DNA of 64,000 nt from an uncultured Ignavibacteria bacterium (GCA_963721075.1 CAVRHV010000008.1:8057-72056), one strand, 5' to 3'. Numbered from the stretch's first letter, positions 17,518-60,863 are shown. A program made the numbers and translations. The notes: generated by a model not told the origin, from the letters alone.

Positions 17518-17530
17518 TATTGCGGGGCTG

Positions 17531-17917
17531 ATGAGAATTGTTACAATTAGTAGTGATACCAGTCTGATAGAGTTGATTGACAAACCCGAAGTCAAGGGAA
17601 AGAATCAACTTCTCGTTTACAACAAAAGCAATGACCTGCTTGATGTGGTCTCATTTATCCATACAAATCATCCTTCGATACTGATCGTAGACGATGATTT
17701 TCTTAAACCCGATACAGCTCATCTCCTGCAAAATGTAAAGAAATTAAATCCCGACATGGCTATCGTATTTATTACCTCAGATTCAGGAATTGAACTGGGT
17801 AAGCAAGTAAGCCAGGTAGGAATACACTTTTATGGCCTGAAGCCTTTAAGTGATAATGAATTAGAAGATTCGATTCGTTCGATTACTAAACTAAAAACAA
17901 CCTTAACTCAATATTAA
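17531..17917 (+). CDS. stand-alone receiver-like (CheY-fold) protein with atypical acidic pocket
   Basis: 'SILIVDDDFLKPD', 'VFITSD' and 'YGLKP' align to REC beta3, beta4 and beta5. The N-terminal DD pair is replaced by 'SSD'. Confidence 0.5.
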   Translation: MRIVTISSDTSLIELIDKPEVKGKNQLLVYNKSNDLLDVVSFIHTNHPSILIVDDDFLKPDTAHLLQNVKKLNPDMAIVFITSDSGIELGKQVSQVGIHFYGLKPLSDNELEDSIRSITKLKTTLTQY

Positions 17918-41383: not shown

Positions 41384-43945
41384 ATGAAAGGTGTCAATAC
41401 AGTCATACGATGGTGGGTGGGATTTCTATCCATCATTCTTTTCCAATCGGCTTTGTTCGCTCAAAGCGGTATAAACGATATAGGCGGCTTTGAGCAGACC
41501 CTGCCCTCATACTGGAATATGACGTCAGCCCCTTCAGGTGCAACACTAACCTGGGCAACTGACGAATATCGTTCAATGGGTAAATCGCTGAAGATTGAAA
41601 AAACAGCCACAACAGACTCAGCTATGTGGCAATCGGATAATATGGTTGACCTCTGGTCGCAGAGACATTATGCTAATGTCGATATAAAGCTCGGAATGTA
41701 CTATATGACCTCAGGGGTAAATACCAATCCTGTCAATGAGGATGAGAAGTGGTATGTAGCTTATACATTCTATGACAGCTTAGATGCTGTGATAGGAGAA
41801 AAGAAATTTGAGCTGGATCAGAGCGTAGCCAGCACGAGCGGCTGGGTAGCAGATACCACAGCAATAGGAGAAGTTATACTACCGGAGGATGCATTCAAGA
41901 CGATCATCAGGTTTGTAGGAGGAAAGAATGCAACCGGAACCGTATGGACAGATGACTATATATTCGTAGGAAGAAACGGAGGTTGGGCAGGACAGGACTG
42001 GAACACAGCAGTAGGAGTGCCGACAGGCTGGTTCTACTGGCTGCCGCCGATCGGAGGAAATGATGGCGTATTAAATGCAGGATATGAAAATACAGTTGTT
42101 ACTGATGAGTATGCACATACAGGTAATTATTCGCTTAAATTTGATATTCCTGAAGGTTCGCATGACGGCTTTGTCGGAACAATTAAATATGCTCTTGATG
42201 ATGCACAGCCGGGCGATGTTCTGAGAATAAGTGTCTGGGTTAAGGGCGCTAATCTGGAGCCCGATTCTGTAATTGCAGTAGGTGATGCCTGGAGTGTTTC
42301 ACTTACAGCAATCTACCATACTACTATGGGAAATAATGCAGGGTTCGGAGATTATGCAGCCAGCCCTGACATCCCGCTCCAGTTCCCTCAAGCTACTGAA
42401 TTCGATTGGAGAAAGTTTTATGTCGATGTAACAATACCGGATCCTCCGGCTGGTGAGACAGCAAAATCGATTTCAGTAAGACTTCATCCTCTCGGCAGAT
42501 TCTCAGGTACTGTCTGGATGGATGATCTCCATATTGAAAAACTGGATCTTCCGGATCTCAATTCTATCGGAAGTTTCGAACAGGATCTTCCTTCATACTG
42601 GAATAAAGGTTCTGAGCCTGAGAATTCAACACTAACCTGGGCAACTGACGAATATCGTTCAATGGGTAAATCGCTGAAGATTGAAAAAACAGCCACAACA
42701 GACTCAGCTATGTGGCAATCGGATAATATGGTTGACCTCTGGTCGCAGAGACATTATGCTAATGTCGATATAAAGCTCGGAATGTACTATATGACCTCAG
42801 GGGTAAATACCAATCCTGTCAATGAGGATGAGAAGTGGTATGTAGCTTATACATTCTATGACAGCTTAGATGCTGTGATAGGAGAAAAGAAATTTGAGCT
42901 GGATCAGAGTGTAGCCAGCACGAGCGGCTGGGTAGCAGATACCACAGCAATAGGAGAAGTTATACTACCGGAGGATGCATTCAAGACGATCATCAGGTTT
43001 GTAGGAGGAAAGAATGCAACCGGAACCGTATGGACAGATGACTATATATTCGTAGGAAGAAACGGAGGCTGGGCAGGACAGGACTGGAACACAGCAGTAG
43101 GAGTGCCGACAGGCTGGTTCTACTGGCTGCCGCCGGTCGGAGGAAATGATGGTGTATTAAATGCAGGATATGAAAATACAGTTGTAACTGATGAATATGC
43201 ATACGATGGAAATTACTCGCTTAAATTTGATATCCCTGTCGGATCGCATGACGGCTTTGTGGGAACCAAAAAATTTACACTTGGTGATATTCAGCCAGGA
43301 GATGCGATAAGAGTAAGTGTCTGGGTTAAGGGCGCTAATCTGGAGCCCGATTCCGCAATTGCAGTAGGTGATGCCTGGAGTGTTTCACTTACAGCAATCT
43401 ACCATACTACTATGGGAAATAATGCAGGGTTCGGAGATTATGCAGCCAGCCCTGACGTACCACTCGAGTTCCCATATGCAACTGAGTTTGATTGGATGCA
43501 GTATCATGTTGATTTGATTGTGCCTGATCCCCCGGCTGGAGAAACGGCAAAGGCAATTTCAGTCAGATTACATCCGCTTGGAAGATTTTCCGGTACTGTA
43601 TGGATGGATTTACTTGAGGTAACAAAGGTTCCCGTCGGAGTTACCGAAGGAAAAGAATTCCAGCCTGTATCGTATAATTTATTCCAGAATTATCCGAACC
43701 CGTTCAATCCCACTACTATCATAAGCTACTCAATACCTAAAGTATCTCACGTTACTTTGAAGATATATGATATACTGGGTAGAGAGGTTAAAACTTTGGT
43801 GAGCGCTGATCAGAATAATGGAATCCATAGAGTTCAATGGAATGGAGACAATAACTATGGAACCAGAGTTTCCAGCGGTATATACCTCTACAGGATTGAA
43901 GCAGGTGATTTCATACAAACGAAGAAAATGATCCTGATTAAATAA
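41384..43945 (+). CDS. secreted surface protein made of two about 362-aa tandem modules (CBM-like jelly-roll suspected) plus a T9SS C-terminal sorting domain
   Basis: Signal peptide. Internal duplication. Tail 'NYPNPFNPTTIISY...IYDILGREV'. Confidence 0.85.
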   Translation: MKGVNTVIRWWVGFLSIILFQSALFAQSGINDIGGFEQTLPSYWNMTSAPSGATLTWATDEYRSMGKSLKIEKTATTDSAMWQSDNMVDLWSQRHYANVDIKLGMYYMTSGVNTNPVNEDEKWYVAYTFYDSLDAVIGEKKFELDQSVASTSGWVADTTAIGEVILPEDAFKTIIRFVGGKNATGTVWTDDYIFVGRNGGWAGQDWNTAVGVPTGWFYWLPPIGGNDGVLNAGYENTVVTDEYAHTGNYSLKFDIPEGSHDGFVGTIKYALDDAQPGDVLRISVWVKGANLEPDSVIAVGDAWSVSLTAIYHTTMGNNAGFGDYAASPDIPLQFPQATEFDWRKFYVDVTIPDPPAGETAKSISVRLHPLGRFSGTVWMDDLHIEKLDLPDLNSIGSFEQDLPSYWNKGSEPENSTLTWATDEYRSMGKSLKIEKTATTDSAMWQSDNMVDLWSQRHYANVDIKLGMYYMTSGVNTNPVNEDEKWYVAYTFYDSLDAVIGEKKFELDQSVASTSGWVADTTAIGEVILPEDAFKTIIRFVGGKNATGTVWTDDYIFVGRNGGWAGQDWNTAVGVPTGWFYWLPPVGGNDGVLNAGYENTVVTDEYAYDGNYSLKFDIPVGSHDGFVGTKKFTLGDIQPGDAIRVSVWVKGANLEPDSAIAVGDAWSVSLTAIYHTTMGNNAGFGDYAASPDVPLEFPYATEFDWMQYHVDLIVPDPPAGETAKAISVRLHPLGRFSGTVWMDLLEVTKVPVGVTEGKEFQPVSYNLFQNYPNPFNPTTIISYSIPKVSHVTLKIYDILGREVKTLVSADQNNGIHRVQWNGDNNYGTRVSSGIYLYRIEAGDFIQTKKMILIK
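41470..43630 (+). repeat. intragenic tandem duplication, period 1086 bp
   Basis: 41541... and 42627... read identically for hundreds of bases. I saw only three substitutions in the first about 520 bp. Divergence increases toward the 3' part of each unit. Confidence 0.9.
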
Positions 43946-43997: not shown

Positions 43998-44843
43998 ATG
44001 AATTTAAGAAGAAGCTTAATAAACAGACAGCAAATAAAAAGTTCGGAAGGAGAGTTCATCTGGGAATTAGAAAACTCATATGAACTCTCTCCGAAGTTAA
44101 GTTCATTAATACTAATAACAGCCAAAGAATGTTTAATAAGGGAGAATAATTTAAGAGAAGGACAAATAGAAGTTACAGTAATCGGGATAGAGGAAAGATC
44201 GGGAAAAGTAATAGAGAAGATGGAAAAGAAAAGAGTTAGGTTGACGATTGATAACGGTATAGAAGACCTGGAAGTTTTAAGGGAAAATGGAAGAGTAGAG
44301 CTGCGGAGAGTAAGGCTGCAGAGGATAAGCCAGGAAGCGATAGAACAGGAAGGAGTCGTAAGTCAAGAAGATTTATCCAAATATTTAGGATGCACAGTAA
44401 GGACTATTCAAAGAGATATAAGGATTATAAAAAAAGAAGGAATAGAAGTAGTAACCAGAGGATATATTCATAATATAGGCAGATGCCAGACACATAAAGT
44501 AAAAATAATAAGTATGATGTTAGATGGGATGACCTATAGTGAAATAAAACTAAGATCCAGACATTCGATAGGAGCAATAAAGAGATACATAGAAAGTTTT
44601 ACAAAAGTCGTAATGGCACAAAAAAAAGGGATATACAGAGTAAAAGATATAAGTGCAGTAACGGGTTTAAGTGAGGGATTAGTAAAACAGTACGTTGAGT
44701 TGCTGAAGGAAAGCAAAAAAGACAAAACAAGGAGAGAGAATCTCAAGCTATTGATAGAAAGAAACAGTTATAGAGAGCATATAAAAAAAACTGTAAAGAA
44801 GCATTCAGAGCCTCTGGCAGCTATGATGGGAGGCTTGTTATGA
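43998..44843 (+). CDS. multi-HTH protein of unknown function (DUF1670-like by recollection)
   Basis: Strong SD GAGGTGAT. HTH-like segments 'SQEDLSKYLGCTVRTIQRDIRIIKKEG', 'MTYSEIKLRSRHSIGAIKRYIESF' and 'VKDISAVTGLSEGLVKQYVELL'. Confidence 0.75.
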   Translation: MNLRRSLINRQQIKSSEGEFIWELENSYELSPKLSSLILITAKECLIRENNLREGQIEVTVIGIEERSGKVIEKMEKKRVRLTIDNGIEDLEVLRENGRVELRRVRLQRISQEAIEQEGVVSQEDLSKYLGCTVRTIQRDIRIIKKEGIEVVTRGYIHNIGRCQTHKVKIISMMLDGMTYSEIKLRSRHSIGAIKRYIESFTKVVMAQKKGIYRVKDISAVTGLSEGLVKQYVELLKESKKDKTRRENLKLLIERNSYREHIKKTVKKHSEPLAAMMGGLL

Positions 44844-45439
44844 GTTTAAATCAGACAAGAGATAGGTATGAAAGCATAAACAAAAGGAATTTTCATCAGG
44901 CAATAGTAAACCTGCTGGAGAATGAATATAAGATACTGGGGTCAAGAAAAGTACTGGATATGCTGGCAGACGATATAGAAGATCTGCACAGGGAATATTA
45001 TCCGGTAAGCAACCAGGTAGGGATCGGAGAAATAGTTTTCAGAACGACGAAGGATGATGGTCAACGACAGAATTATGGTAAGAAGACGGAAGATTATGCG
45101 GCAGTGACAGTAGTACTTCCACTGATAACCGAAGAAGATGTAGAAAGAAGAATCTTCTATAAGAAGGGAGACCGTAACAGTAATTATAAACACCGGGAAG
45201 CAAGAGATATAGAGACAATGGTAAGGTTGCTGAAGGCCGCCAAGGCACAGGGAGGATTACTAAGCGGAGCAGAGCTGAGTGTTTTAATGAATAGAAGCCT
45301 GACTTCAATAAGGAAATATTTAGATGCTTACAGAACAAAAACCGGAGAGATACTTCCATTGAAAGGATATGTGCTGGACCAGGGAAGTTTACCGACACAT
45401 AAAGGAATCATAATAAGTTTATATGAGCAGGTTAAGTAA
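44840..45439 (+). CDS. HTH protein of unknown function, paralogous to the C-terminal half of the preceding gene
   Basis: ATGA start/stop overlap. GGGAGG SD. 'LSGAELSVLMNRSLTSIRKYLDAYRTKTGEILPLKGYVLDQGSLPTHKGIIISL'. Confidence 0.75.
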   Translation: MSLNQTRDRYESINKRNFHQAIVNLLENEYKILGSRKVLDMLADDIEDLHREYYPVSNQVGIGEIVFRTTKDDGQRQNYGKKTEDYAAVTVVLPLITEEDVERRIFYKKGDRNSNYKHREARDIETMVRLLKAAKAQGGLLSGAELSVLMNRSLTSIRKYLDAYRTKTGEILPLKGYVLDQGSLPTHKGIIISLYEQVK

Positions 45440-45451
45440 GAAATGTAGTTA

Positions 45452-45486
45452 AGGGTGCTGATTATTCAGCACCCTATGTTTTTATT
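45452..45486 (+). terminator. hairpin terminator after the cassette
   Basis: AGGGTGCTG (45452-45460) / CAGCACCCT (45467-45475), followed by ATGTTTTTAT. Confidence 0.6.
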
Positions 45487-45526: not shown

Positions 45527-48229
45527 GTGGATGTAATGTTCACTACGAATAACCATATTAAAAGACTGGTGTCGGTTCTGTCCGTGTTAATATGCATGAC
45601 AGCTAGTCAGGTCTTCGCAGGTACAACCGGCAAGATCTCCGGCAAAATTATTGATAAAAGCACGGGCGAAGCATTAATAGGTGCAAATGTTCTGATTGTA
45701 GGCACTTCGATGGGATCATCATCAGACATTGACGGAAATTATTTTATTCTGAATATCCCTCCGGGAGAATACCAGGTAAAAGCCTCAATGATCGGCTACG
45801 CTTCTGTTACTTTTGAACATGTAAAAGTATCAGTTGATCAGACTACCAAAATAGATTTTGAACTTAACCCCGAATCAATTGAACTCGAGAATGTGGTAGT
45901 AACGGCGGAGAAACCGATTGTAAGAAAAGACCTTACTTCAACTGAACAGACAGTGAGCGGTGACGATATCTCTATGCTTCCTCTTGAAGACGTTGCATCG
46001 GTTGTTAACCTTCAGGCCGGAGTTATTAACGGCCATTTCAGGGGCGGCAGGAGTGATGAAGTCCGTTACCTGATAGACGGTGTGCCGGTAAATGATGTTT
46101 ATTCGGGACAATCATCCCTTTCGGCAGAGGTTAACAGTATTCAGGAAGTCCAGGTTCTCGTAGGAACTTTTAATGCTGAATACGGTGATGCACAATCCGG
46201 TGTGGTTAACCAGGTAACAAAGATTGCCGGAGACAAACTTACAGGAAATATTTCTGCATACACAGGTGATTATGTCAGCTCTCATACAGGGATATTTCAG
46301 TACATAAATCATATAAGTCCAAACGATGTTTATGATTTGGAAGGAAATCTTAGCGGTCCTGTCCCGGGCATTGGAAACCTGTTAAAGTTTTTTGTTTCGG
46401 GAAGATACAATCGCGATCAGGGTTATATCTATGGACACAGGATATTTAACCCCCAGGACTCCTCTAACTTTTCGGCTAATGATCCTGCTGACTGGTATGT
46501 CGGCGCTACAGGTGATAAAGCTTATGTTCCTATGAATTACAGTCATAGGCTGTCCCTTCAGGGTAAACTGAGCATAAATGTCGGCAGTGGAAGAGGAATA
46601 GTATTAACCGGACTTTACCAGGACAATCAGTATAAAGATTATAATCATCTTTACCAGTTGAACCCTGACGGCGATTATAAAAAATTCCAGAAGAGTATAC
46701 TGGGAATAGCAAGTTACACCTTTTTGTTAAGCAATTCTGCTTTTATAGATTTATCGGCCTCGGCATTGCAGTCTGAGTATAAACAGTATGTTTATCAGAA
46801 TCCTCTTGACCAGCGCTATGTTAATCCGGATAGAAAAAAAGATGTCAGCGGCGACGCTTTTTATACCGGAGGTACGGAGAACTGGCATTTTAATCATACG
46901 ACAACAAGTTTAACCGGGAAGGCTGATTTTTCATGGCAGATTGATAATATTAATCAGATAAAAACAGGTGTTGAGTTTACACGTCACGATCTGAAGTACG
47001 AGGACTTTCAGATAATAATCGATGCAACTTCAAATTTCAAACCTATGCTTCCATCACCCGGAGCTTTTAATTACAACACTTATCATGCAAATCCATATCA
47101 GGCGGCCTGGTACATTCAGGACAAGATTGAGATCGATTATCTTATTGTTAATGCCGGAGTAAGGTTCGACTACTTTGAGCCAGATGGACAGTACCTTAAG
47201 AACCCCAACAAAATAAACGAACTTGATGAGCTTCAGCCTCCGTTCCCTGATTCATTAATGGTGAATGCCTCAGCCAAGTATCAGTTTAGTCCAAGAATAG
47301 GAATCTCATACCCGATCTCAGATCAGGGAGCTATACACATATCATACGGTCATTTCTTCCAGATACCCCCGTTTGAGAACCTGTACCGAAATCCTAATTT
47401 CAGAATTCCTCTTACCGGTGATTTTCCCGAAAATATCGGCAATGTAATAGGTAACGCCGATCTTAAACCGCAGCAGACAATAATGTATGAGATTGGTCTG
47501 CAGCAGGCTCTGACAAATGATCTCGGAATGACTATAACCGGTTATTATAAAGATATAAGGAACCTGCTGGGAACAGAAATATATATCAAGAATGAATTCA
47601 GAAAATTCAGTAAGCTGGTAAACAGGGATTATGGATCCGTAAAGGGAATTACCCTGTCACTGGAGAAGAGGTTCAGTGGTGGATTAGGCGCTGCAATAGA
47701 TTATACTTTCCAGGTGGCCAAAGGAAGTGCTTCTGATCCTAATGCAGCTTTTAATAATGCTCAGGCAAATCCTCCTATCGAAGCAAACAAACAGCTTGTG
47801 CCTCTTGACTGGGATGGAAGACATACTCTCAGGTTCACACTAACTCTGGGTGAGCCCGGGAATTATATTGCCAGCTTTATCGGCCGGCTCGGATCGGGTC
47901 TGCCATATACGCCGTCCCTGCAGAATCAAAGAACAGGACTGGAAAACAGCGATAACAAACCACCTTATTATGATGTCGATGTATACCTGACAAAATACAT
48001 TGATATTGCGGGACAGCAGTTCTCGATTTTTGCAAAAGTTTACAACCTTTTCGATACCCTGAATGAGAATGATGTATTCGGTGATACAGGCAGAGCAGGA
48101 TATACATTGGAGCTTACAAGAAACCAGGCTCCTCCCAGAGGTGTTAATACCATCCAGGAATATTTTACAAGACCCGATTTTTATTCAGCGCCCAGGCAGA
48201 TTGTTATCGGGGCGGAAGTATCATTTTAG
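45527..48229 (+). CDS. TonB-dependent outer-membrane receptor with N-terminal carboxypeptidase-regulatory-like domain (start may be ATG 45536)
   Basis: 'GKISGKIIDKSTGEALIGANVLIVGT...DGNYFILNIPPGEY', the plug 'VVVTAEKPIV...', barrel repeats and a terminal aromatic '...GAEVSF'. Confidence 0.92.
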   Translation: MDVMFTTNNHIKRLVSVLSVLICMTASQVFAGTTGKISGKIIDKSTGEALIGANVLIVGTSMGSSSDIDGNYFILNIPPGEYQVKASMIGYASVTFEHVKVSVDQTTKIDFELNPESIELENVVVTAEKPIVRKDLTSTEQTVSGDDISMLPLEDVASVVNLQAGVINGHFRGGRSDEVRYLIDGVPVNDVYSGQSSLSAEVNSIQEVQVLVGTFNAEYGDAQSGVVNQVTKIAGDKLTGNISAYTGDYVSSHTGIFQYINHISPNDVYDLEGNLSGPVPGIGNLLKFFVSGRYNRDQGYIYGHRIFNPQDSSNFSANDPADWYVGATGDKAYVPMNYSHRLSLQGKLSINVGSGRGIVLTGLYQDNQYKDYNHLYQLNPDGDYKKFQKSILGIASYTFLLSNSAFIDLSASALQSEYKQYVYQNPLDQRYVNPDRKKDVSGDAFYTGGTENWHFNHTTTSLTGKADFSWQIDNINQIKTGVEFTRHDLKYEDFQIIIDATSNFKPMLPSPGAFNYNTYHANPYQAAWYIQDKIEIDYLIVNAGVRFDYFEPDGQYLKNPNKINELDELQPPFPDSLMVNASAKYQFSPRIGISYPISDQGAIHISYGHFFQIPPFENLYRNPNFRIPLTGDFPENIGNVIGNADLKPQQTIMYEIGLQQALTNDLGMTITGYYKDIRNLLGTEIYIKNEFRKFSKLVNRDYGSVKGITLSLEKRFSGGLGAAIDYTFQVAKGSASDPNAAFNNAQANPPIEANKQLVPLDWDGRHTLRFTLTLGEPGNYIASFIGRLGSGLPYTPSLQNQRTGLENSDNKPPYYDVDVYLTKYIDIAGQQFSIFAKVYNLFDTLNENDVFGDTGRAGYTLELTRNQAPPRGVNTIQEYFTRPDFYSAPRQIVIGAEVSF

Positions 48230-48252
48230 CCGATTTTTTTATTGGAGTAAGA

Positions 48253-51200
48253 ATGTTATTAAAAAGAATTAATACCAGCTTAATAATTCTGATTACAGTT
48301 TTCCTGATCTATCCCTGTCTTGTTTTCGGTCAGAGGATTGTTGATAAAAACAAAGGCGATCATAACCAGACGAAAAAGGGCTTTATGGATGGAAATCTAG
48401 CTGCTACTGTTTATTATAATTTCGGTGAAGTAGCAGACTGGGAAAATGAACCAAGCAGGAGCGGCGTCTGGCCCAAAGGAACCAACCACACATATGTGGA
48501 CGGTGTTGCTATTATAGTGCAGGCTGAAGCACAAGACCCTGCCGGAAATCTCATTCATCCGCTTGAAACAAATTATTATGAGTTCACCCGTTATGATCCT
48601 TCAACAGGAGTAACATACGGCTGGTGGCCCCTTCCGGGTTATTCCAATCCATATAACAGCTCACCTGCCCGCAGCGATGATGCATCTACCTGGCCGACAA
48701 CATGGCCTGACAGACCTGCCGACTGGAATAATAGCTGGAATGGTTTTTTCGGTAAAGGAGTATTTAATGCAGATGTAGAAACGTATTTCGTCTTTGATGA
48801 TGACGAAGATCGCCAATATTTGCTCGAACATAATTTTCACCCGGATGCCGATGACCCGACAAGAGGAGGACTAGGTATGCAGGTGCGAGCAAGAGGATTT
48901 CAGTGGTCGCAGGTACTCGCTGAGGATGCAATTTTCTGGTATTATGAGATAACTAATATGGGTACATATGATTACCCGAAAACTTTATTCGCACAGTATG
49001 TGGACTGGGGGATTGGAGGACACGACAACTCCTCTAATAATGCAGGTGATTACAATGAACTTCTGGATATATCATATGCCTGGTCAACAGTACCGTTTGG
49101 AAGTCCGGGCAACTGGACACCCGTGGGTTATGCCGGCTATGCATTCCTTGAAAGTCCCGGTGTACCTGATGACAATATAGATAACGATCAGGACGGACCC
49201 ACAGACGAGAAGAGAGATAACCTCGCAGTTAATTTTATTAATTCTCCTGACCAGGATCCATTTTTAAGAAATCCCTTACAGGATACTTTAAAATTTTCAG
49301 CTTTCTACGGATACTCATGGAGACCTCACTGGGATGCCGATGAGAATGCTAACTGGAGATCTTTTTTTGATTTGAATGAAAATGGTGTCTGGGATGAAGG
49401 AGAAGCGCTTCGGGATGATGTTGGAACCGACGGAATCGGTCCGTATGATGAGGGTTATACCGGACCTGATCCTGACGGTACGGAAGGGAACGGCCGGCCC
49501 GACCAGGGAGAACCGAATTTTGGAGTTCTCGATAAAGATGAATCCGATCAGCTAGGTCTTACCGGATTCGCAATTTATCCTGTCCACCAGTATGAACTTG
49601 ATAATGATGAAGAAAACTGGCAGGTGCTGTCTGCATTACCTTCACCGCACGGGCAGATTCTTGAGAACGTCAACCTTGCCAATTACTTTTCAAGCTATTT
49701 GTTCAGTATGAACGGCCGCAATACGTATTCAGCAATTACAGGGCAGAATGAAGAAACAGGTGAAACCGAAAGATTTTCGATGTCGATGATCTTCGGAATA
49801 AATACAAGCGATATTTTCAGGAGAAAGAAAACAGTTCAGCAGATTTATAATGCTAATTATAGATTTGCAAAACCTCCTGAAAAACCAATTCTTACTGCGG
49901 TACCGGGTGATCATAAAGTCACTTTGTACTGGGATGATCGGGCTGAGAAAACTTTTGACGAATTTTATCAGAGAATAAATTTTGAAGGCTATAGAGTATA
50001 TCGTTCTACTGAACCTAATTTCCTTGAGGATAAGATCATTACAGATGCATACGGTAAACCAATATACAGGTCCCCGATTGCACAGTTTGACCTTGTTGAC
50101 GGAGTAACGGGACTTCATCCTATTGATGTGAACGGTGCAAAATTCTATCTGGGAGATGATTCCGGATTAAAGCATTCATTCATAGATACTACTGTACAGA
50201 ATGGCCAGACATATTATTATGCTGTTGCAGCTTACGATAAGGGATTTGAAACTGTAACAATAGAAGGGAATTTCGAAGGAATTCCTCCTTCAGAAACAAC
50301 CACTATCCTGAAAAAGGATATAAGCGGGAATATTACTACAGATATAAACACTGCGGTGGTAACTCCAAGAGCCCCGGCAGCAGGTTATATCGCGCCGGAA
50401 ATACAATCATTTGAAGGCAGTGGTCCGGGTACGGGAAAGATATCTATTTCTATACTTAACCCTGATTCCATAAAAAATAATAATACGTATAGACTGGAAT
50501 TTTATGACAACGCTCCTTATCACAATTCCGCACATCCGGATTATTCAGTTATCAATGCTGTCACCAACGATACATTACTAAACAAAAAGAATATAAAAGG
50601 AGTTAACGAACAGTCCCCTGTACTCGACGGATTTACTATCGATATTAAAAGTGATACAGTTGTCAGCATTGATTATGATAAATCAGACTGGAAATCAGGA
50701 AACAGCAACTATGTTGTACAGCTTGGATTTGATTCCCGTTTTGCGCCGGCCTATTCTGGTAAGAAAATTAATTACCCGGCGGATTATGAGATCACGTTCA
50801 CTGAACCCGGACAGGGAGATCTTTCGTTCCCTGCTACATCGTTCAGTAATCCTATACAATCAAACATAATTGTAAAAAATGTCACCGAGAACAATGAGCA
50901 CTTTCAATTTATTTTCCGCGATCAAAATCACGATGAACTTTTTAATGCAGGCGATGCCATTTTCTTTGTTTTTGGTGATTCGCTTGGTGCGCCGGCAACA
51001 GGATTTTCAAATCTTCACGTTAGCTGGTCCGTTACTCTGTTTAAGGATACTTCAATAGCAGAGGAAGATCAAAAACCTCCCCAGCCGGGGGATGTCTACA
51101 GTTTTGTGAATACGAAGCCATTCCGTGACGGTGAGTTTTATGAGTTCAAAACTAAAGCACAGGGACTCGATAAATCGCAGGCGGCAAAAGATCTTGCTAA

Positions 51201-51504
51201 TATCGCAGTCGTTCCAAATCCATATGTCGGCGCTGCTTCCTGGGAACCGGCAACTGTAGAGGTTGGCAGAGGAGAAAGAAGAATTTTCTTCATTCATCTG
51301 CCCCAGGAGTGTACTATCAGAATTTATACTATAAGCGGAAAACTTGTAAATACCATACAGCATAACAGTACGATTTCGGACGGGCAGGAAGTCTGGGATC
51401 TTGTATCGAAGGATGGAATGGATATTGCCTTCGGGGTTTATGCATTTCATGTCACTGCACCCGGAATTGGAGAGTACATTGGAAAATTTGCGGTAATAAA
51501 ATAA
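48253..51504 (+). CDS. 1083-aa secreted protein of unknown function with Asp-rich Ca-binding-like loops, an FN3-like module and a T9SS-type C-terminal domain
   Basis: Signal peptide. 'DNDQDGPTDEKRD' and 'GTDGIGPYDEGYTGPDPDGTEGNGRPDQGEPNFGVLDKDESDQLGLTGF'. 'VTLYWDD...EGYRVYRS...YYYAVAAYDKG'. Tail 'VVPNPYVG...IRIYTISGKLV...GVYAFHV...KFAVIK'. Confidence 0.85.
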   Translation: MLLKRINTSLIILITVFLIYPCLVFGQRIVDKNKGDHNQTKKGFMDGNLAATVYYNFGEVADWENEPSRSGVWPKGTNHTYVDGVAIIVQAEAQDPAGNLIHPLETNYYEFTRYDPSTGVTYGWWPLPGYSNPYNSSPARSDDASTWPTTWPDRPADWNNSWNGFFGKGVFNADVETYFVFDDDEDRQYLLEHNFHPDADDPTRGGLGMQVRARGFQWSQVLAEDAIFWYYEITNMGTYDYPKTLFAQYVDWGIGGHDNSSNNAGDYNELLDISYAWSTVPFGSPGNWTPVGYAGYAFLESPGVPDDNIDNDQDGPTDEKRDNLAVNFINSPDQDPFLRNPLQDTLKFSAFYGYSWRPHWDADENANWRSFFDLNENGVWDEGEALRDDVGTDGIGPYDEGYTGPDPDGTEGNGRPDQGEPNFGVLDKDESDQLGLTGFAIYPVHQYELDNDEENWQVLSALPSPHGQILENVNLANYFSSYLFSMNGRNTYSAITGQNEETGETERFSMSMIFGINTSDIFRRKKTVQQIYNANYRFAKPPEKPILTAVPGDHKVTLYWDDRAEKTFDEFYQRINFEGYRVYRSTEPNFLEDKIITDAYGKPIYRSPIAQFDLVDGVTGLHPIDVNGAKFYLGDDSGLKHSFIDTTVQNGQTYYYAVAAYDKGFETVTIEGNFEGIPPSETTTILKKDISGNITTDINTAVVTPRAPAAGYIAPEIQSFEGSGPGTGKISISILNPDSIKNNNTYRLEFYDNAPYHNSAHPDYSVINAVTNDTLLNKKNIKGVNEQSPVLDGFTIDIKSDTVVSIDYDKSDWKSGNSNYVVQLGFDSRFAPAYSGKKINYPADYEITFTEPGQGDLSFPATSFSNPIQSNIIVKNVTENNEHFQFIFRDQNHDELFNAGDAIFFVFGDSLGAPATGFSNLHVSWSVTLFKDTSIAEEDQKPPQPGDVYSFVNTKPFRDGEFYEFKTKAQGLDKSQAAKDLANIAVVPNPYVGAASWEPATVEVGRGERRIFFIHLPQECTIRIYTISGKLVNTIQHNSTISDGQEVWDLVSKDGMDIAFGVYAFHVTAPGIGEYIGKFAVIK

Positions 51505-51537
51505 TGAGATCTTTCAAATTTATTGCAAGAGGATGCC

Positions 51538-52575
51538 ATGCGTAATCTGTCTCATTTAACAATGATTTTAATAGCGCTGATTTGTTTATTCAGCGAAAGG
51601 GATATCTATTCCCAAAATGTTTCAAAGACCGGTACCACTGCAGCTGCATTCCTTGAGATAGGGGTTGGAGCTGCGGCGAACGGAATGGGCGGTGCATTCG
51701 TCGGCCGTGCTGATGACGCTTCAGCGCTTTACTGGAATGTCGCGGGTATTGCCTCCAGATCCCGCAACGAAGTAGTGCTGGTTCATACGAACTGGATTGC
51801 AGATACCAGGTTTGATTTTGCAGGTTTGGTTCTGAATCTGGGTGACTTCGGAAATATCGGGTTGAGCTTTACATCGCTATCTATGTCTGACATGAAGGTG
51901 AGAACTGTCCAACAGCCGGAGGGAACTGGGGAATATTTCAGTGCCGGTGATATTGCAGTCGGGCTTTCATATGCAAGATATCTTACCGACAGATTTTCGG
52001 TAGGTCTTACAGCAAAATATATTCAGCAGTCTATCTGGCATATGAATGCTACCGCTTTTGCGATCGATGCAGGAACCATTTTCAGAACCGATCTTCTTGG
52101 CGGTCTAACCATAGGAGCCGTACTGTCAAATTTTGGAACACCTATGCGCATGCAGGGCAGGGATGCAAGATATTTTATCAGGGTTGATGAAACGAAGCAG
52201 GGATCGAACGACAATATACCTGTGAATATAGATCTTGATTCCTGGGATCTTCCGCTCTATTTCCAGATTGGTGTTTCTACACCTGTATTAAATGAAGATG
52301 ATTATAAAATGTATGTATCTGCTGATGCCCTTGTTCCGAATAACGACTACCAGAGCCTGAATGTGGGCGCGGAATTTACCTTTATGGATATTTTATCTCT
52401 TCGGGGCGGGTATAATTCTTTGTTCCTGAAAGATTCTGAAGGAGGTTTATCGCTCGGGGTAGGAGTAAATTCGCAGATGCTTTTGAGTGTAGCCACCGTT
52501 TATTTCGATTATGCTTTCAGAGATTTCGGACGACTCGATAATGTACATAATTTTTCAATCGGAATAAGGTTTTAA
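51538..52575 (+). CDS. PorV/PorQ (UPF0164)-family outer-membrane beta-barrel protein
   Basis: 'GTTAAAFLEIGVGAAANGMGGAFVGRADDASALYWNVAGIA' is the family's N-terminal signature. Alternating barrel pattern with terminal 'FSIGIRF'. ATG 51538 follows AAGAGGA. The ORF-track start is 51523. Confidence 0.75.
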   Translation: MRNLSHLTMILIALICLFSERDIYSQNVSKTGTTAAAFLEIGVGAAANGMGGAFVGRADDASALYWNVAGIASRSRNEVVLVHTNWIADTRFDFAGLVLNLGDFGNIGLSFTSLSMSDMKVRTVQQPEGTGEYFSAGDIAVGLSYARYLTDRFSVGLTAKYIQQSIWHMNATAFAIDAGTIFRTDLLGGLTIGAVLSNFGTPMRMQGRDARYFIRVDETKQGSNDNIPVNIDLDSWDLPLYFQIGVSTPVLNEDDYKMYVSADALVPNNDYQSLNVGAEFTFMDILSLRGGYNSLFLKDSEGGLSLGVGVNSQMLLSVATVYFDYAFRDFGRLDNVHNFSIGIRF

Positions 52576-52606
52576 TCCGGATTCTATTTTCACGTAAGTT
52601 CTCGAT

Positions 52607-54127
52607 ATGAAAACGAAAATTTTCTTACTCCTGATTTTTCTGTGTAACGCGGTTTTTATATGTGCTCAGGATCTGTTTCTTGAATCAAAACAGGATAGCG
52701 TTGGTAAGGAGGATATTGTAGCGCAGGTTGATACAATTAAGATAACTGCAGAGGAGTTTTATTATTCTTACGAGTTTGGTCCGGCCTTTCCTAAAAGAGA
52801 AAAGAATTCAAAGTCTGTTCATTTAAAATATCTTATTAATGAAAAACTTCTTGCACTGGAAGGCTATAAAACCGGTGTAATGGAGCAGAATGACGTACAG
52901 GGTATGTATAATGACTATAAAGCGGATCTGGCTTCCGAGGAAATGTTCAGACAGGAAATTCTTCCGGATGTTAAGATCACTAAGGATGAAATAGACAGGG
53001 TCACTGAAAAAAAGCTTATAGAATATGATATAAGATGGCTCTATAGCCGCGATGAAAATTCCGCGGCAGGTCTGCTGAAGAAATTAAAAAATGGGGCATC
53101 ATTTGATTCATTATTCAACGGGCAGCTCAATGATTCTGTTTTTATTAACGACAGGAAGATGACCGGCACTTTATATGATATATATATGAAGAATCCTCTT
53201 CTCGCCGGCATCCTCGATACTCTGCAGGCCGGAATTATTCCTCCTCCGATTCATACTGATGACGGATGGTATATTATAAAGGTTGATAATATTCAGAGAA
53301 GTCTTATCAATGGCGAAGCTGAAATTAATAAACTGAGGTCGGAATCTGAAGAGGGAATTAAGAAAAGTAAAATGGGGATAAAGTCGGATGAATTCATTAA
53401 AGGTCTTTTCGATAAAGAAAATCCGGTAATTAAGCGTGATGCATTTAATCTGTTAAGATCCTACCTGGGAAAATTTGTACTGCCGTCTGAGAAGTATCAG
53501 GAATGGGGACTCGAGGGAAAACTGGATTCAGCTTTGTCGGCATTGGGTCTCAAACGAGGCGACAAATATCCAGGAATAATACTGGTCACAGGATCGGTTT
53601 ATGAATATTCGCTGGACGATTTTATTGAATGGTACAGGGACAGGTCGGAGTATATTAAGTTTTCCGAAGATGATTTAAACAGTTTCTCATATTCTCTGGA
53701 AAATCTGGTCTGGATTATGGCGAGAGACAGGATGCTGGCAAAGACAGCGGAGAATAAAGGCTATACTAAATCTCCCTGGGTCAAAAAACAGACATCCTGG
53801 TGGAGAGATAAGATAGCATATAGTGCTTACCGGAACAAACTGGAAAAATCTATTGCTCTTAACTCAGATGAAATTAAGTTGATAAAGGAGAATAAAAAAT
53901 CAAAATCAGATATTATGAGTGAAGAGCTTTCGAAGAAAGTACTTCATAAGGTCCTTCAGCTCAGACAGGAGCATAAGGTTATTATTAACAAAGACATACT
54001 TGATAAAATTAAGGTCTCATCTGAAAACGACAGGAAAGCCATCGACATTTATTTTATTAAAAGAGGCAACTTGATACCAAGAACATTGTATCCCTCTATA
54101 GATAATGACTGGATCAGCTGGGAATAA
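52607..54127 (+). CDS. SurA/parvulin-like periplasmic chaperone or peptidyl-prolyl isomerase (weak)
   Basis: Signal peptide. The 'LQAGIIPPPIHTDDGWYIIKVDNI' segment resembles the end of a parvulin domain. The rest is helical and Lys/Glu-rich. Confidence 0.5.
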   Translation: MKTKIFLLLIFLCNAVFICAQDLFLESKQDSVGKEDIVAQVDTIKITAEEFYYSYEFGPAFPKREKNSKSVHLKYLINEKLLALEGYKTGVMEQNDVQGMYNDYKADLASEEMFRQEILPDVKITKDEIDRVTEKKLIEYDIRWLYSRDENSAAGLLKKLKNGASFDSLFNGQLNDSVFINDRKMTGTLYDIYMKNPLLAGILDTLQAGIIPPPIHTDDGWYIIKVDNIQRSLINGEAEINKLRSESEEGIKKSKMGIKSDEFIKGLFDKENPVIKRDAFNLLRSYLGKFVLPSEKYQEWGLEGKLDSALSALGLKRGDKYPGIILVTGSVYEYSLDDFIEWYRDRSEYIKFSEDDLNSFSYSLENLVWIMARDRMLAKTAENKGYTKSPWVKKQTSWWRDKIAYSAYRNKLEKSIALNSDEIKLIKENKKSKSDIMSEELSKKVLHKVLQLRQEHKVIINKDILDKIKVSSENDRKAIDIYFIKRGNLIPRTLYPSIDNDWISWE

Positions 54128-54130
54128 TTA

Positions 54131-55417
54131 ATGAAGATCCCCTTAATTATAATTTTTAGTCTGGTTCTGCTCTCTTTGAATAGCTGCAGCAGCGATAAAA
54201 AAAATGAAAATCGCCTTCTTTACTGGTGTTCTAATAACTCAGATGAAATAAGTTTTGCAAAGGTACGTACTGCAGAATGGAACAGCGGCAGACCTGAACT
54301 CCCTGTTAAATTTCAGCCTGTTCCTGAGGGACGATCAAGTGAAGAGATCATTCTTGCTGCGGTTGTGGGCAATACTACTCCGGATATTTATTCTAATATG
54401 TGGCAGGGGGATGTTGAAGCCTATGCCCAGGCAGGTGTACTGGTCGCACTCGATACCCTGGCAGGCTTCATGGATTTTATGTACAGCAGATGTGATAGTT
54501 CTGTGATTGAAGAAATCACTTCACAGGATGGACATATATACCAGATTCCGTGGAAAATAAATCCTATCATGCTTATATATAATGTTAATATAATTAACAA
54601 CCTCGGATTGAAAAATCCTCCGCAAACCTATGATCAGTTCTTTGACGCATCAAAGAAATTTCAGAAGGACATCAATGGCGACGGTTATGTTGACAGGTGG
54701 TTCGGATACTCGGAGGTACTTGTTACCTGGTGGCAGAGATTTTTTGATTTTTATCCCCTTTATCTTGGCGCTTCCGGCGGAGCACCTCTGGTTAAAGATG
54801 ATAAAGCTGTTTTTGATAATAAATATGCGGTTGAAGTATTCAGGTTTCTTCAGACTTTATATAAGAAAAAATACTTTGCAAAAGAACAACTGTCAGCCAG
54901 GCAGGATCCTTTTTTGTCGGGCGTAATTGCCTCACGTTTTACCGGACCCTGGGAAATCGCTCACGCCGAAAAATATAAACCTGAAGGGTTTATTTATGAT
55001 TACACAACTCTGCCTGTGCCCGATGACCATAAAGGTCCTGTCTATACATACGGCGATCCGAAGAACATTGTAATCTTTAAAAGCTGTAAAGATCCGGCGG
55101 CTGCATGGGATTATATTAAAACACTGATAAATAAAGAAGGGGATTTGAAGCTCCTGGAATTAACCAACCAGCTTCCCAGGCGTAAGGATCTGGAGAAAGA
55201 TCCTTTTTTCAGCAGCTATTTCAGTAAAAATCCAAAGATGAAAGTATTTGCGGAAGAGGCAAGGTACGTAAAAGGCACAGATGCATCGCCCGTACTGAAA
55301 GAAGTTTTCGATTTAATCTCACAGGAATATGAAGCGTGTGTCGTTTACGGTCAGAAGACTCCTGAACAGGCGGTCAAAGATGCCGCTGATGCAGTAAATT
55401 TATTGTTTATAAAATAA
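54131..55417 (+). CDS. ABC sugar transporter substrate-binding lipoprotein (family 1 SBP)
   Basis: Lipobox 'LSLNSCSS'. Typical SBP_bac_1 length and pattern. Followed by two permeases. Confidence 0.88.
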   Translation: MKIPLIIIFSLVLLSLNSCSSDKKNENRLLYWCSNNSDEISFAKVRTAEWNSGRPELPVKFQPVPEGRSSEEIILAAVVGNTTPDIYSNMWQGDVEAYAQAGVLVALDTLAGFMDFMYSRCDSSVIEEITSQDGHIYQIPWKINPIMLIYNVNIINNLGLKNPPQTYDQFFDASKKFQKDINGDGYVDRWFGYSEVLVTWWQRFFDFYPLYLGASGGAPLVKDDKAVFDNKYAVEVFRFLQTLYKKKYFAKEQLSARQDPFLSGVIASRFTGPWEIAHAEKYKPEGFIYDYTTLPVPDDHKGPVYTYGDPKNIVIFKSCKDPAAAWDYIKTLINKEGDLKLLELTNQLPRRKDLEKDPFFSSYFSKNPKMKVFAEEARYVKGTDASPVLKEVFDLISQEYEACVVYGQKTPEQAVKDAADAVNLLFIK

Positions 55418-55426
55418 AATACAGGA

Positions 55427-56287
55427 ATGAGTAACAGAAAAAAAATATTACCTTACCTGCTTGTTTCACCCTATATAATACACTTCCTGCTGTTTGTTTC
55501 GTTCCCTGTGGTCTTTTCGATAATTCTAACATTCCACAAATGGAATATAATTTCTCCGATGGAGTATTCAGGAATTACGAATTATGTTAAATTGTTTGCC
55601 GATAAAACGTTTTTCAAATCAATCTTTAATACACTTATATTCCTCGTCATTCATATTCCATTGCAGATTATTGTTGCGCTCTTTCTTGCTGAAGTCTTAA
55701 ATCAGAATATTAGACTGCGGGGACTTTTTCGGGGGGCGTTTTTCCTGCCTGTTATAGTTTCAGGTGTAGTTGTGTCAATGTTGTGGCAGCAATTATACGG
55801 CTTCGATACCGGTCTGCTTAACAGACTGCTGACATCTATAGGCCTTGATAAGGTCGGCTGGCTGATCGATCCCAAAATAGCTATGCCTTCGATTGCACTG
55901 ATGGCGACATGGAAAAATGTCGGGCTCTATATAATTTTATTCCTGGTAGGACTCCAGACAGTCCCTGTACAATATTATGAGGCCGCTGATCTCGAAGGAG
56001 CCTCTCATTTTCAGAAATTCTTTAAGATCACCCTTCCCATGATAAATCCTACGATATTTATGGTAGTTATTCTTTCAACTATCGGAGGCTTTTCATTATT
56101 TATTGAACCATATATAATGACGGGCGGGGGACCCTTGAACAGTACGGTATCGGCGGTACTTTATATCTACAAACAGGGCTTCTTTTATTACCATATGGGA
56201 TATGCTGCTACACTGGGATTGTTCTTTGCATTGATCATTCTTGCGGTTGTGGTAATTCAGAAAAAGTTCATAGAGAAAAACAATTGA
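55427..56287 (+). CDS. carbohydrate ABC transporter permease
   Basis: Six TM segments and the EAA loop 'YYEAADLEGASHFQKFFKITLPM'. Confidence 0.92.
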   Translation: MSNRKKILPYLLVSPYIIHFLLFVSFPVVFSIILTFHKWNIISPMEYSGITNYVKLFADKTFFKSIFNTLIFLVIHIPLQIIVALFLAEVLNQNIRLRGLFRGAFFLPVIVSGVVVSMLWQQLYGFDTGLLNRLLTSIGLDKVGWLIDPKIAMPSIALMATWKNVGLYIILFLVGLQTVPVQYYEAADLEGASHFQKFFKITLPMINPTIFMVVILSTIGGFSLFIEPYIMTGGGPLNSTVSAVLYIYKQGFFYYHMGYAATLGLFFALIILAVVVIQKKFIEKNN

Positions 56288-57102
56288 AATATCTTAAAAA
56301 AATATTGTTCTATGCTGCACTGACTATCAGTGCACTGACCTTTGTTTATCCATTCTACTGGATGGTAATGGGTTCATTCTCGCCTGAAAAAGAAATCGGA
56401 AGTCTTACTTTCCTGCCGGATTCAGTGACTTTGAGCAGCTATTCACAGATGTTTGACAAGATACCGATAGGCGGAGCATTTGTGAACAGTATGATCGTTT
56501 CTCTGTCTATCACTATCGGAGTGCTTGTTTTTGGATCAATGATCGGATATGCCCTGGCAAAGCTTACCTTCAGGGGAAGAGAGCTAATATTTTATATAAT
56601 CATTTTTACCATGACGCTGCCTTTCCAGATAACGCTTATACCACAGTACATAATTATGGTAAAATTCGGATGGATTGATACATATCTTGCACTTATAGTC
56701 CCGTACCTCATCAATGCCCTGAGCATAATTATGTTCAGGCAGTATTTCAAGACGATACCCGACAGCCTGATAGATGCCGCAAGGATAGACGGCTGTAATG
56801 AGCTTCAGATAATATTCAGGATATTATGGCCTAATTCGATGCCCGCTATAATAACGATAGCAATTATTACTTTTATGGCTTCGTGGAATGAAGTGCTCTG
56901 GCCTTTGATTGTTATCCGCGATGAAAGTTTAATGACTATGCCCCAGCTTGTTACACTCTTTTCTGTGGGAGGCAGAGCGGACTCACAGCTTGGTGTCAAA
57001 CTTGCTTCGGCAGTAATGCTTGCCCTGCCGATAGTACTGGCGTATCTGTTCTTCCAGAAATATTTCATACAAAGTATGACTTCAACAGGGTTAAAGGAAT
57101 AA
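56284..57102 (+). CDS. carbohydrate ABC transporter permease (TTG start)
   Basis: EAA loop 'LIDAARIDGCNELQIFRILWP...'. 4-nt overlap with the upstream permease gene. Confidence 0.92.
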   Translation: MKYLKKILFYAALTISALTFVYPFYWMVMGSFSPEKEIGSLTFLPDSVTLSSYSQMFDKIPIGGAFVNSMIVSLSITIGVLVFGSMIGYALAKLTFRGRELIFYIIIFTMTLPFQITLIPQYIIMVKFGWIDTYLALIVPYLINALSIIMFRQYFKTIPDSLIDAARIDGCNELQIIFRILWPNSMPAIITIAIITFMASWNEVLWPLIVIRDESLMTMPQLVTLFSVGGRADSQLGVKLASAVMLALPIVLAYLFFQKYFIQSMTSTGLKE

Positions 57103-57199
57103 AATAATTATGCTACTTAATAATTCAAAAACAGGAACTCAGAGTCCTGAAGCAGATAGGTTTGACAAGAGCAAAATGGAAAAACAAGGAGTATCATTA

Positions 57200-58105
57200 A
57201 TGAATAAGATAGTTAAGTATGAGGGTAACCCAATACTGACGAATAGAGATGTTCCGTTTAGGGTTAATTCGATTTTTAATGCAGGTGCGGTTAAAATAGG
57301 GGATCGTTATCTGCTGCTTTGCAGAACAGAGATGCCAGATGGGAGGTCCTCTTTTACCCTGGCTGAGAGTACTGATGGAATAAAATTTATGGTTGCAGAT
57401 AAACCTTGCCTTACGCCGCGCGATCACAAGGATTTTTTTGAATATGTTGAATGGGGAATTGAAGATCCGAGGATTATCCCCATTGACGGCAGTTATTATA
57501 TTACTTACACCGGTTACTCTCAATATCAGCCGCTTGTTATGCTTGCTGAAACAAATGATTTCAAAAGCTTTATCGTACATGGACCGATCAGTGAACCATC
57601 CAACAAAGACTGCTCTTTTTTTCCTGAAAAGATAGACGGCTATTATTGGAAAGTTGACAGACCCTCTGCCGGAAATCGAAAAGATATATGGATCAGCAAA
57701 AGTCCCGATCTTATTCACTGGGGCTCGCCGCGTGTTTTGATGCAGCCGCTTCCCGGAACATGGGAAGCCGATAAAATTGGTTCTTCGAGTAATCCGGTTC
57801 GGACAGAAGAAGGGTGGCTGATGCTTTATCATGGAGTACGGGAGTTTCCTGCCAGCTCAATCTATAAACTTGGAGTTGTTCTGCTTGATTTGGAAAAACC
57901 CTGGGTTGTAAAAGGAAGAAGCCGGGAACCGATTATTTTTCCTGATCATGATTATGAAAGAACGGGAGATGTTATGAATGTGGTGTTTTCCAATGGCTGG
58001 ATATCCGAACCGGATGGTAAACTAAAAATTTACTACTCAGGTGCAGATACTAACGTAAGCCTTGCGGTTACATCGAAAGAATACCTGGTGTCTTTATGTA
58101 TATAA
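57200..58105 (+). CDS. GH130-family glycoside phosphorylase/hydrolase (beta-mannoside-acting family)
   Basis: 'YEGNPILT...NAGAVKIGDRYLLLCR', 'GIEDPRI', 'YYITYTGYS', 'NKDCSFFPEK' and 'GWLMLYHGV...YKLGVVLLDLEKP'. ATG 57200 follows AAGGAG at 8-nt spacing. The ORF-track start is 57110. Confidence 0.85.
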   Translation: MNKIVKYEGNPILTNRDVPFRVNSIFNAGAVKIGDRYLLLCRTEMPDGRSSFTLAESTDGIKFMVADKPCLTPRDHKDFFEYVEWGIEDPRIIPIDGSYYITYTGYSQYQPLVMLAETNDFKSFIVHGPISEPSNKDCSFFPEKIDGYYWKVDRPSAGNRKDIWISKSPDLIHWGSPRVLMQPLPGTWEADKIGSSSNPVRTEEGWLMLYHGVREFPASSIYKLGVVLLDLEKPWVVKGRSREPIIFPDHDYERTGDVMNVVFSNGWISEPDGKLKIYYSGADTNVSLAVTSKEYLVSLCI

Positions 58106-59397: not shown

Positions 59398-59404
59398 TCT
59401 GAAA

Positions 59405-60862: not shown

Positions 60863-60863
60863 C

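Follow-up and report, generated by a model that had tools for sequence, protein, structure and literature searches.

The stretch of DNA analysed here, called the window below, consists of 64,000 nucleotides (nt) from an uncultured Ignavibacteria bacterium (GCA_963721075.1), and all coordinates are positions in it. At 45527-54127 the listing of open reading frames (ORFs) gives four genes in one orientation, which encode a TonB-dependent receptor (TBDR), a secreted protein of 1,083 amino acids (aa) that we call BIG, a PorV-like barrel and a 506-aa protein similar to SurA and PrsA. The TBDR and BIG genes are separated by 23 nt, the barrel and the 506-aa gene by 31 nt, and the 506-aa gene and the gene of an ABC solute-binding protein (54131) by 3 nt. 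The gap between BIG and the barrel is 18 nt to a TTG at 51523, or 33 nt to an ATG at 51538. A first-pass annotation of the window had described four co-oriented and tightly spaced genes without a SusD gene, and the ORFs, the gaps and the domain scans agree with it; no SusD-type Pfam domain was found in any ORF scanned at 36-63 kb of the window. We are concerned mainly with the first three genes, called the triad, whose order recurs in related loci. The genes and the regions of BIG are listed here.

45527-48229, +, TonB-dependent receptor with a CarboxypepD_reg N-domain (Pfam CarbopepD_reg_2, Plug, TonB_dep_Rec_b-barrel)
48253-51504, +, BIG, 1,083-aa secreted multidomain protein (ORF; large uncharacterised family)
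48349-49887, +, BIG residues 33-545, probable beta-super-sandwich into which Asp-rich loops of Ca type are inserted (domain model, Foldseek)
49888-50502, +, BIG residues 546-750, FN3-like and Ig-like modules (conserved KVTLYWD...FEGYxIYRS...TYYYAVxAYD; Foldseek FN3 arrays)
50503-51177, +, BIG residues 751-975, most variable beta-sandwich region (lowest column conservation; mean pairwise distance 0.73)
51178-51501, +, BIG residues 976-1083, divergent C-terminal domain (CTD) of type IX secretion system (T9SS) type, the most conserved part (hhalign; beta-sandwich)
51523-52575, +, 14-strand-type barrel of the PorV/PorQ family, 350 aa, likely start ATG 51538 (NF033709)
52607-54127, +, secreted SurA/PrsA-like protein, 506 aa, with a putative, degenerate parvulin domain (family profile)

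Products of the four genes

The first gene encodes a TonB-dependent receptor, with scores of 30.5 bits for the Plug domain PF07715 (cut-off 23.9) and 101 bits for the barrel domain PF00593 (cut-off 27). The first-pass annotation had noted a CarboxypepD_reg N-domain typical of SusC-like proteins. This N-domain is present, but membership of the SusC/RagA family is not borne out, as TIGR04056 gave 65.7 bits against a cut-off of 368 and matched only residues 36-158, which are this N-domain. No sequence relative of the receptor was found in the PDB at 1e-5. The SusC/SusD tandem of a canonical polysaccharide utilisation locus (PUL) is absent, since the next gene after the receptor encodes a protein that is nearly all beta and has no lipobox.

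This protein, BIG, gave no Pfam, NCBIfam or PDB sequence match when searched at full length, and for Pfam and NCBIfam also in four pieces, except for FlgD_ig at the tail (E 0.014). Among the 1,997 relatives returned by a word-indexed search, the best 120 belong to Ignavibacteriales and Melioribacteraceae, have identities of 71-92%, and are called "hypothetical" wherever they are named. An exhaustive HMMER scan of representatives at 50% identity gave 4,409 clusters for the family at E <= 1e-3 and 618 at E <= 1e-30, with members mostly of 1,000-1,600 aa. In an alignment of 51 BIG sequences there are invariant Asp, Trp and Gly residues, DxDxDG-type motifs and an FN3 signature; conservation is lowest at about 750-960, and the C-terminus is very conserved (VVPNPY...GRGER...IRIYT.SG.LV...G.Y.YHV...GKFA.IK). 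The signal peptide is of the signal peptidase I type without a lipobox, and cleavage is probably at VFG|Q. Cleavage before Gln fits the Bacteroidetes "Q-rule".

An AlphaFold2 model of BIG, built with the same alignment, is almost wholly beta (pLDDT 84.9, pTM 0.72). When the full-length model was submitted to Foldseek, it matched generic FN3/Ig arrays (TM < 0.1) and, weakly, PorU and PorZ. Residues 33-545 were also modelled separately (pLDDT 73.8), and they matched the N-terminal sandwich of the GH15-like dextran dextrinase 9ju0 (E 5e-7) as well as GH94, GH116, GH63 and PL26 enzymes. These sandwich matches have E values of 5e-7 to 2e-3, probabilities of 0.97-1.00, query TM-scores of 0.30-0.35 and sequence identities of 6-10%, and BIG has no counterpart of the catalytic domains found in the matched enzymes. 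Residues of about 301-445 (nt 49153-49587) contain 16.6% Asp, have low secondary structure and carry the motifs DNDQDG and DLNENG. The Asp residues of these loops are invariant across the family, and they gave no TSP_3 match in Pfam. Both the Asp-rich loops and the FN3-like module had been predicted for BIG, and both predictions hold, the second with FN3 arrays as the top full-length Foldseek matches. The T9SS-type tail predicted at the same time is upheld as a remote homologue of such domains and not as a canonical type A CTD. With hhalign, the family profile of the tail matched the canonical CTDs of the neighbouring cargo proteins at 95.4% probability (E 2e-8).

The third gene product is in the PorV/PorQ family. 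NF033709 covers residues 38-350 with 208.4 bits (cut-off 90), Pfam PorV gives 34 bits (cut-off 27), and the PorV structure 6h3i of the PDB is matched at E 4e-9. All the equivalog models score under their cut-offs: 70.5 vs 250 for PorV (NF033710), 90.8 vs 220 for PorQ (NF033711) and 84.7 vs 325 for PorV2 (NF052325).

For the fourth gene, the 506-aa sequence alone is below threshold (Rotamase_2 22.2 bits vs 27; SurA E 0.05). A profile made from 18 of its relatives matched HP0175, SurA and PrsA at E 1e-21 to 1e-23, with Rotamase_2 detected in 14 of the 18 relatives and SurA_N_3 in 6 of them. The earlier assignment to a parvulin/SurA-like protein is supported by the family profile, and the single sequence stays below the Rotamase_2 cut-off.

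Gene order, locus subtypes and co-evolution

One genome per GTDB species was scanned, and 546 relatives were confirmed. The locus counts given below are for the best 80 loci; gene order was read by phmmer against all six-frame ORFs of the related loci, while the universal core was counted by de novo clustering in 84 loci. The best 80 loci lie in metagenome-assembled genomes (MAGs) labelled Ignavibacteria, Calditrichia, Rhodothermales, Balneolales, Marinimicrobia, KSB1 and Stahlbacteria, of which a few NCBI labels are doubtful.

It was found that the TBDR gene lies immediately 5' of BIG in 63 of 70 testable loci and the barrel gene immediately 3' of BIG in 68 of 75. The exceptions mostly keep all three genes, rearranged or frameshifted. 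As about 90% of 80 related loci show this order, the arrangement is not due to chance. When all neighbouring ORFs were clustered without supervision, the only universal clusters were BIG (84 loci), the barrel (77) and the TBDR (74), and the ORFs beyond the triad and the SurA-like gene are specific to the locus type. The median gaps inside the triad are 12-13 nt. A CTD-bearing gene is found immediately 5' of the TBDR in 43 of 49 loci. The de novo clustering placed the SurA-like gene in only 34 of the 84 loci, at shifting positions, so it is accessory to the triad, and we rejected the four genes as one invariant unit. The first-pass annotation had proposed a four-gene order to be looked for across Ignavibacteria and other lineages of the Fibrobacterota-Chlorobiota-Bacteroidota (FCB) group; its TBDR-BIG-barrel part is conserved there and its fourth gene is not.

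Several variant layouts were observed. Tandem BIG pairs lie beside one TBDR and one barrel in L030 (6735-13213) and L038 (622-6419). In L029 and L030 the SurA-like gene is between BIG and the barrel, and L082 has the order TBDR, barrel, cargo, BIG. Two orphan BIGs, in L046 (9977-13223) and L015 (9968-13225), are about 70% identical to the BIG of the window. The L046 copy consists of two ORFs and stands after an 823-aa protein without a Pfam match and before a MalK-like ATPase, with a truncated TBDR at 16786-17619; this could be decay or an assembly error.

The related loci fall into several types. The entire layout of the window, from the LacI regulator to the GH130 genes, recurs in orthologous loci of Rosettibacter firmus and other Ignavibacteria. 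A type found in Ignavibacteria and Calditrichia has, beside the triad, a CBM9-CTD protein (CBM: carbohydrate-binding module), GH9-CTD, GH2-CTD and GH16-malectin-CTD proteins, GH3, GH16 and an SSF transporter. A third type has a GH144 "glycoamylase", LacI and ABC genes, and a fourth type (L003) has FG-GAP/ASPIC, CBM9 and CBM6 proteins. In average-linkage clustering, the triad proteins group by the carbohydrate-active enzyme (CAZyme) content of their loci and not by taxonomy. For example, the cluster of triads from GH130/ABC loci spans Ignavibacteria, Calditrichia, KSB1 and Stahlbacteria.

The three proteins also diverge together. The pairwise distance matrices of TBDR, BIG and barrel from 63 triads are correlated, with r = 0.95, 0.92 and 0.89, and within every locus the three have nearly the same level of identity. 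Two paralogous triads that share a contig co-diverge as well, with identities to the window of 65/69/63% in one and 43/44/47% in the other. Partial Mantel tests on the regions of BIG gave suggestive results. With the barrel controlled, covariation with the TBDR is left for the N-domain and the variable region (r about 0.63, p = 0.001), and no covariation of these regions with the barrel was found once the TBDR was controlled. The CTD is the only region of BIG with residual covariation with the barrel when the TBDR is controlled (r = 0.31, p = 0.001).

Two triads of differing subtype, each with its own barrel, are present on single contigs (L011 with L047, and L025 with L075), and one KSB1 MAG holds both L066 and L082. 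The first-pass annotation had taken the barrel for a locus-specific paralogue of PorV, a claim that would fall if the barrel were the sole general PorV of the organism. This is not the case, because single contigs hold two triads with a barrel each; the PorV scores under the cut-offs and the co-divergence with the triad led us to the same rejection.

The surrounding sugar locus

The other features of the locus are the following.

39327-40349, +, LacI-family regulator of the sugar locus (Pfam LacI and Peripla_BP_1), which heads the orthologous loci too
41384-43945, +, 853-aa canonical T9SS type A cargo protein (TIGR04183 47.7 bits, cut-off 23; PF18962 or FlgD_ig)
43998-45439, +, two DUF1670 helix-turn-helix genes (Pfam DUF1670)
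45452-45475, +, terminator-like hairpin, a 10-bp stem followed by a T run (consensus scan)
54131-57102, +, ABC sugar importer, a solute-binding protein and two permeases (Pfam SBP_bac_8, two BPD_transp_1)
57110-63137, +, genes of cytoplasmic catabolism, for two GH130 enzymes with an unknown 433-aa protein encoded between them, followed by a GH94/GDE-like 757-aa protein (Pfam)

On the 5' side of the module, the LacI regulator is accompanied by a Zn-dehydrogenase gene and by the gene of the 853-aa cargo protein. The first ~770 residues of the latter have no Pfam, NCBIfam or PDB sequence match. Its orthologues, of 830-1,220 aa, occupy the equivalent position in loci of the GH130 type, and it may be a surface enzyme or binding protein of the locus. 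The two DUF1670 genes, on the other hand, have no counterpart in any of the 84 related loci. As regulators belonging to the module they were rejected for this reason, and the pair has the look of an insertion specific to this lineage, which may be regulatory. Within the locus, GC is lowest in the 44-46 kb bin (0.378), which also shows an extreme purine skew (GC skew +0.28, AT skew +0.26). The hairpin right before the TBDR suggests that a new transcription unit begins at the TBDR.

On the 3' side, the nearest relatives of the GH130 enzymes are beta-1,2-mannobiose and beta-1,2-oligomannan phosphorylases. Mannan and mannooligosaccharides had been suggested earlier as inducers; the closest enzymes act on beta-1,2-mannosides. 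The 433-aa protein (58096-59397, +) has no family match and keeps its place between the GH130 genes in 13 orthologous loci, and the 757-aa GH94/GDE_C-like protein (60864-63137, +) has weak Pfam matches only and no NCBIfam match; we regard both as uncharacterised members of a beta-mannoside pathway.

The window also codes for other proteins with canonical T9SS CTDs. Among them, a 656-aa MtrC/MtrF-like multihaem cytochrome (20117-22087, +) bears a canonical sorting domain (Por_Secre_tail, E 1e-10), which suggests, from the sequence, that a cytochrome of extracellular electron transfer is exported by the T9SS. Just 5' of it lies another MtrC-like cytochrome (17933-19081, +), in which no sorting-domain match was detected. 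At 110-1543 (-) the window encodes an OmpA-family protein with Ca-binding repeats of thrombospondin type 3.

Interpretation and comparison with known systems

We lean towards the reading that the TBDR, BIG and the barrel form a three-part outer-membrane nutrient-capture unit of a PUL-like locus without SusD, which in the window probably serves beta-mannosides. The observations behind it are the gene content, the domain assignments, the conserved order, the co-evolution and the subtypes that track CAZyme content. The reading in the first-pass annotation, which had the big protein exported by the T9SS and held by its PorV-like partner in place of SusD, is supported in part, and neither of the two findings that it named as refuting was obtained. 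In such a unit, BIG would pass the inner membrane through Sec, lose its signal peptide at the probable VFG|Q site, and cross the outer membrane through the T9SS with the divergent CTD as its signal. The CTD would stay uncleaved and be kept on the neighbouring barrel, in the way that PorZ is kept on PorQ, and type B cargo on SprF/PorP. The ectodomain, with its Ca-stabilised beta-sandwich of CAZyme type, FN3/Ig spacers and variable module, would then be held in a physical complex beside or over the co-evolving TBDR, where it may bind glycans in place of SusD, either capturing oligosaccharides or passing them to the receptor. The adjacent canonical T9SS cargo protein may free oligosaccharides at the surface. 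Import by the TBDR would be followed by the ABC system into the cytoplasm and by phosphorolysis by GH130, and the SurA/PrsA-like protein would be an optional periplasmic assembly helper for the large components. BIG itself may be a lid like SusD, a tethered binding protein like SusE/F, or an enzyme. Since the N-domain is conserved across loci of different specificities, a structural or docking role fits it better than substrate recognition; it is more like a generic docking or structural element, and residues 751-975 are the better candidate for specificity.

A stronger form of this reading is put forward tentatively, as one that may well prove wrong: the triad may be a phylum-spanning, SusD-independent "utilisome", in which a BIG of ~1,100 residues, delivered by the T9SS, is docked permanently on its own PorV-family barrel and caps the TBDR. 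If so, the FCB phyla beyond Bacteroidia (Ignavibacteriota, Calditrichota, Rhodothermota/Balneolales, Marinimicrobia, KSB1 and Stahlbacteria) would have the triad as their main PUL architecture, the T9SS would gain a direct structural role in nutrient import, and the BIG-barrel pair would mark glycan loci in those phyla as susC/susD does in Bacteroidota.

Several observations weigh against the capture-unit reading. L015 and L046 hold BIG without an adjacent TBDR or barrel. The distance correlations come partly from shared phylogeny, and partial Mantel tests are anticonservative on related sequences, so that the results for the regions of BIG are suggestive only. The tail of BIG has no match to type A (TIGR04183 / PF18962) or type B (TIGR04131 / PF13585 CHU_C) at E <= 0.01. 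The fold match of the N-domain is partial (TM about 0.35) and no demonstration of sugar binding, and this domain is strongly conserved between loci of differing specificity.

Four other explanations were considered. In one of them, the barrel is a locus-dedicated T9SS shuttle for all the CTD proteins there, BIG is just another cargo or glycan binder, and the adjacency reflects co-regulation only. CTD-bearing CAZyme and CBM proteins (CBM9-, GH9-, GH2- and GH16-CTD) are plentiful near the triad, a cargo gene precedes the TBDR at the frequency given above (43/49), and PorV is known as the general shuttle for type A cargo (PMC10994853). However, the neighbouring cargo has canonical type A CTDs, a job for the general PorV, and its number and identity vary while the BIG-barrel adjacency is near-universal; the locus of the window has one other cargo gene only. 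Moreover, the CTD of BIG forms a subclass of its own, highly conserved and covarying with the barrel, and co-evolution is as tight for the TBDR as for BIG and the barrel. We consider a shuttle unlikely. Slightly less probable again is that BIG is a new surface-anchored carbohydrate-active enzyme, a hydrolase or lyase whose products the TBDR imports. Its N-domain is like the super-sandwich that takes part in forming the active sites of GH15, GH94, GH116, GH63 and PL26 enzymes, many Asp, Glu and Trp residues are invariant, and Ca-dependent lyases and hydrolases are known. But BIG has no (alpha/alpha)6 or TIM-barrel catalytic domain in its nearly all-beta model and no CAZy-type Pfam match, and a catalytic domain would not usually be shared, as this conserved N-domain is, by loci for clearly different glycans.

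The barrel and the SurA-like protein could also be biogenesis factors for the insertion or folding of the exceptionally large TBDR and BIG, like BamG and the peptidyl-prolyl isomerases (PPIases), and not permanent parts of an uptake unit. The machinery for beta-barrel assembly (BAM) of Bacteroidota has a FadL-like barrel and several PPIases on BamA (PMC12578637), and by its family profile the fourth gene is in the SurA/PrsA chaperone family. This idea is hard to square with a separate co-evolving barrel for each paralogous triad, which is not expected of an assembly factor with a general role. Most loci do without the SurA-like gene, and the barrel belongs to the PorV/PorQ family and not to a BAM family; we judge the idea improbable. 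Least probable of all, and very much so, is the import of a non-carbohydrate nutrient with an incidental position among sugar genes in the window. The L003 type is ringed by FG-GAP/UnbV_ASPIC and TPR/GDSL-lipase genes (TPR: tetratricopeptide repeat) and not by classical glycoside hydrolases, as this explanation would have it, yet even L003 has CBM9 and CBM6 proteins. In most loci there are CAZymes, CBMs and LacI regulators together with ABC or SSF transporters for sugars, and the triad subtype tracks the CAZyme content.

PUL prediction and much of the knowledge of glycan foraging are built on SusC/SusD, a pair found largely in Bacteroidota. Sediments, hot springs, soils and the ocean harbour the triad-bearing lineages in abundance, and glycan uptake in these is essentially uncharacterised. 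If the capture-unit reading is true, polysaccharide loci in those phyla could be annotated by a recurring gene signature that counts thousands of family clusters. It would also define a large new protein family, at present without a Pfam or NCBIfam model, and a new CTD subclass with its own PorV-family barrel, and would link the T9SS mechanistically to TonB-dependent import.

When compared with SusC/SusD (RagA/RagB), the triad is alike in that the gene of a TonB-dependent transporter with a CarboxypepD_reg domain lies right 5' of the gene of the proposed surface partner, within a regulated locus with CAZymes and an inner-membrane importer, and in that many paralogous modules exist whose subtype follows the glycan-degrading genes. 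It is unlike in the partner itself, since SusD is an alpha-helical TPR lipoprotein whereas BIG is a nearly all-beta protein of 1,083 aa with a signal peptidase I-type signal and a T9SS-like CTD. In addition, the third obligatory gene, for the PorV-family barrel, has no counterpart in SusCD, and the TBDR fails the SusC/RagA model.

The second comparison is with CTD proteins that are kept uncleaved on cognate PorV-like barrels, namely PorZ-PorQ, PorU-PorV and SprB-type (type B CTD) cargo with SprF/PorP (PMC10202324). As in these pairs, the gene of a CTD protein stands beside that of a dedicated FadL/PorV-family barrel, and the CTD of BIG is a conserved non-canonical subclass, as expected for a permanent docking module. 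The differences are that the barrel of the triad is no PorV, PorQ or PorV2 equivalog, that the CTD of BIG is neither type A nor type B, and that the BIG-barrel pair sits in an operon with a TBDR in nutrient loci and not with attachment or gliding machinery.

A FadL-like barrel also occurs in the BAM of Bacteroidota, where BamG holds the large extracellular lipoprotein BamH against BamA, with PPIases associated (PMC12578637, PMC12611786). The likeness is an architectural analogy only, consisting of a 14-strand FadL-type barrel, a large extracellular protein, a second larger barrel and parvulin/SurA-type proteins. The protein families and the function are different, BamH is a lipoprotein and not a CTD protein, and no homology is claimed.

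Receptors without SusD are also found in Proteobacteria, in loci centred on a TonB-dependent transporter (TBDT) alone. Such loci, for example the carbohydrate utilisation containing TBDT (CUT) loci of Xanthomonas, combine the receptor with CAZymes, a LacI-type regulator and an inner-membrane transporter, as the triad loci do. To our knowledge, they have no BIG-like partner and no PorV-family barrel, and those organisms have no T9SS.

We found no description of the triad in open-access papers and bioRxiv preprints, and an earlier mention elsewhere is possible. In the genome paper of Melioribacter roseus, a classical SusCDE operon is the only such system mentioned. The parts of the triad resemble known ones, namely TBDT-centred glycan loci and the pairing of a CTD protein with a cognate barrel, while their obligatory combination, the BIG family and its CTD subclass appear to be new.

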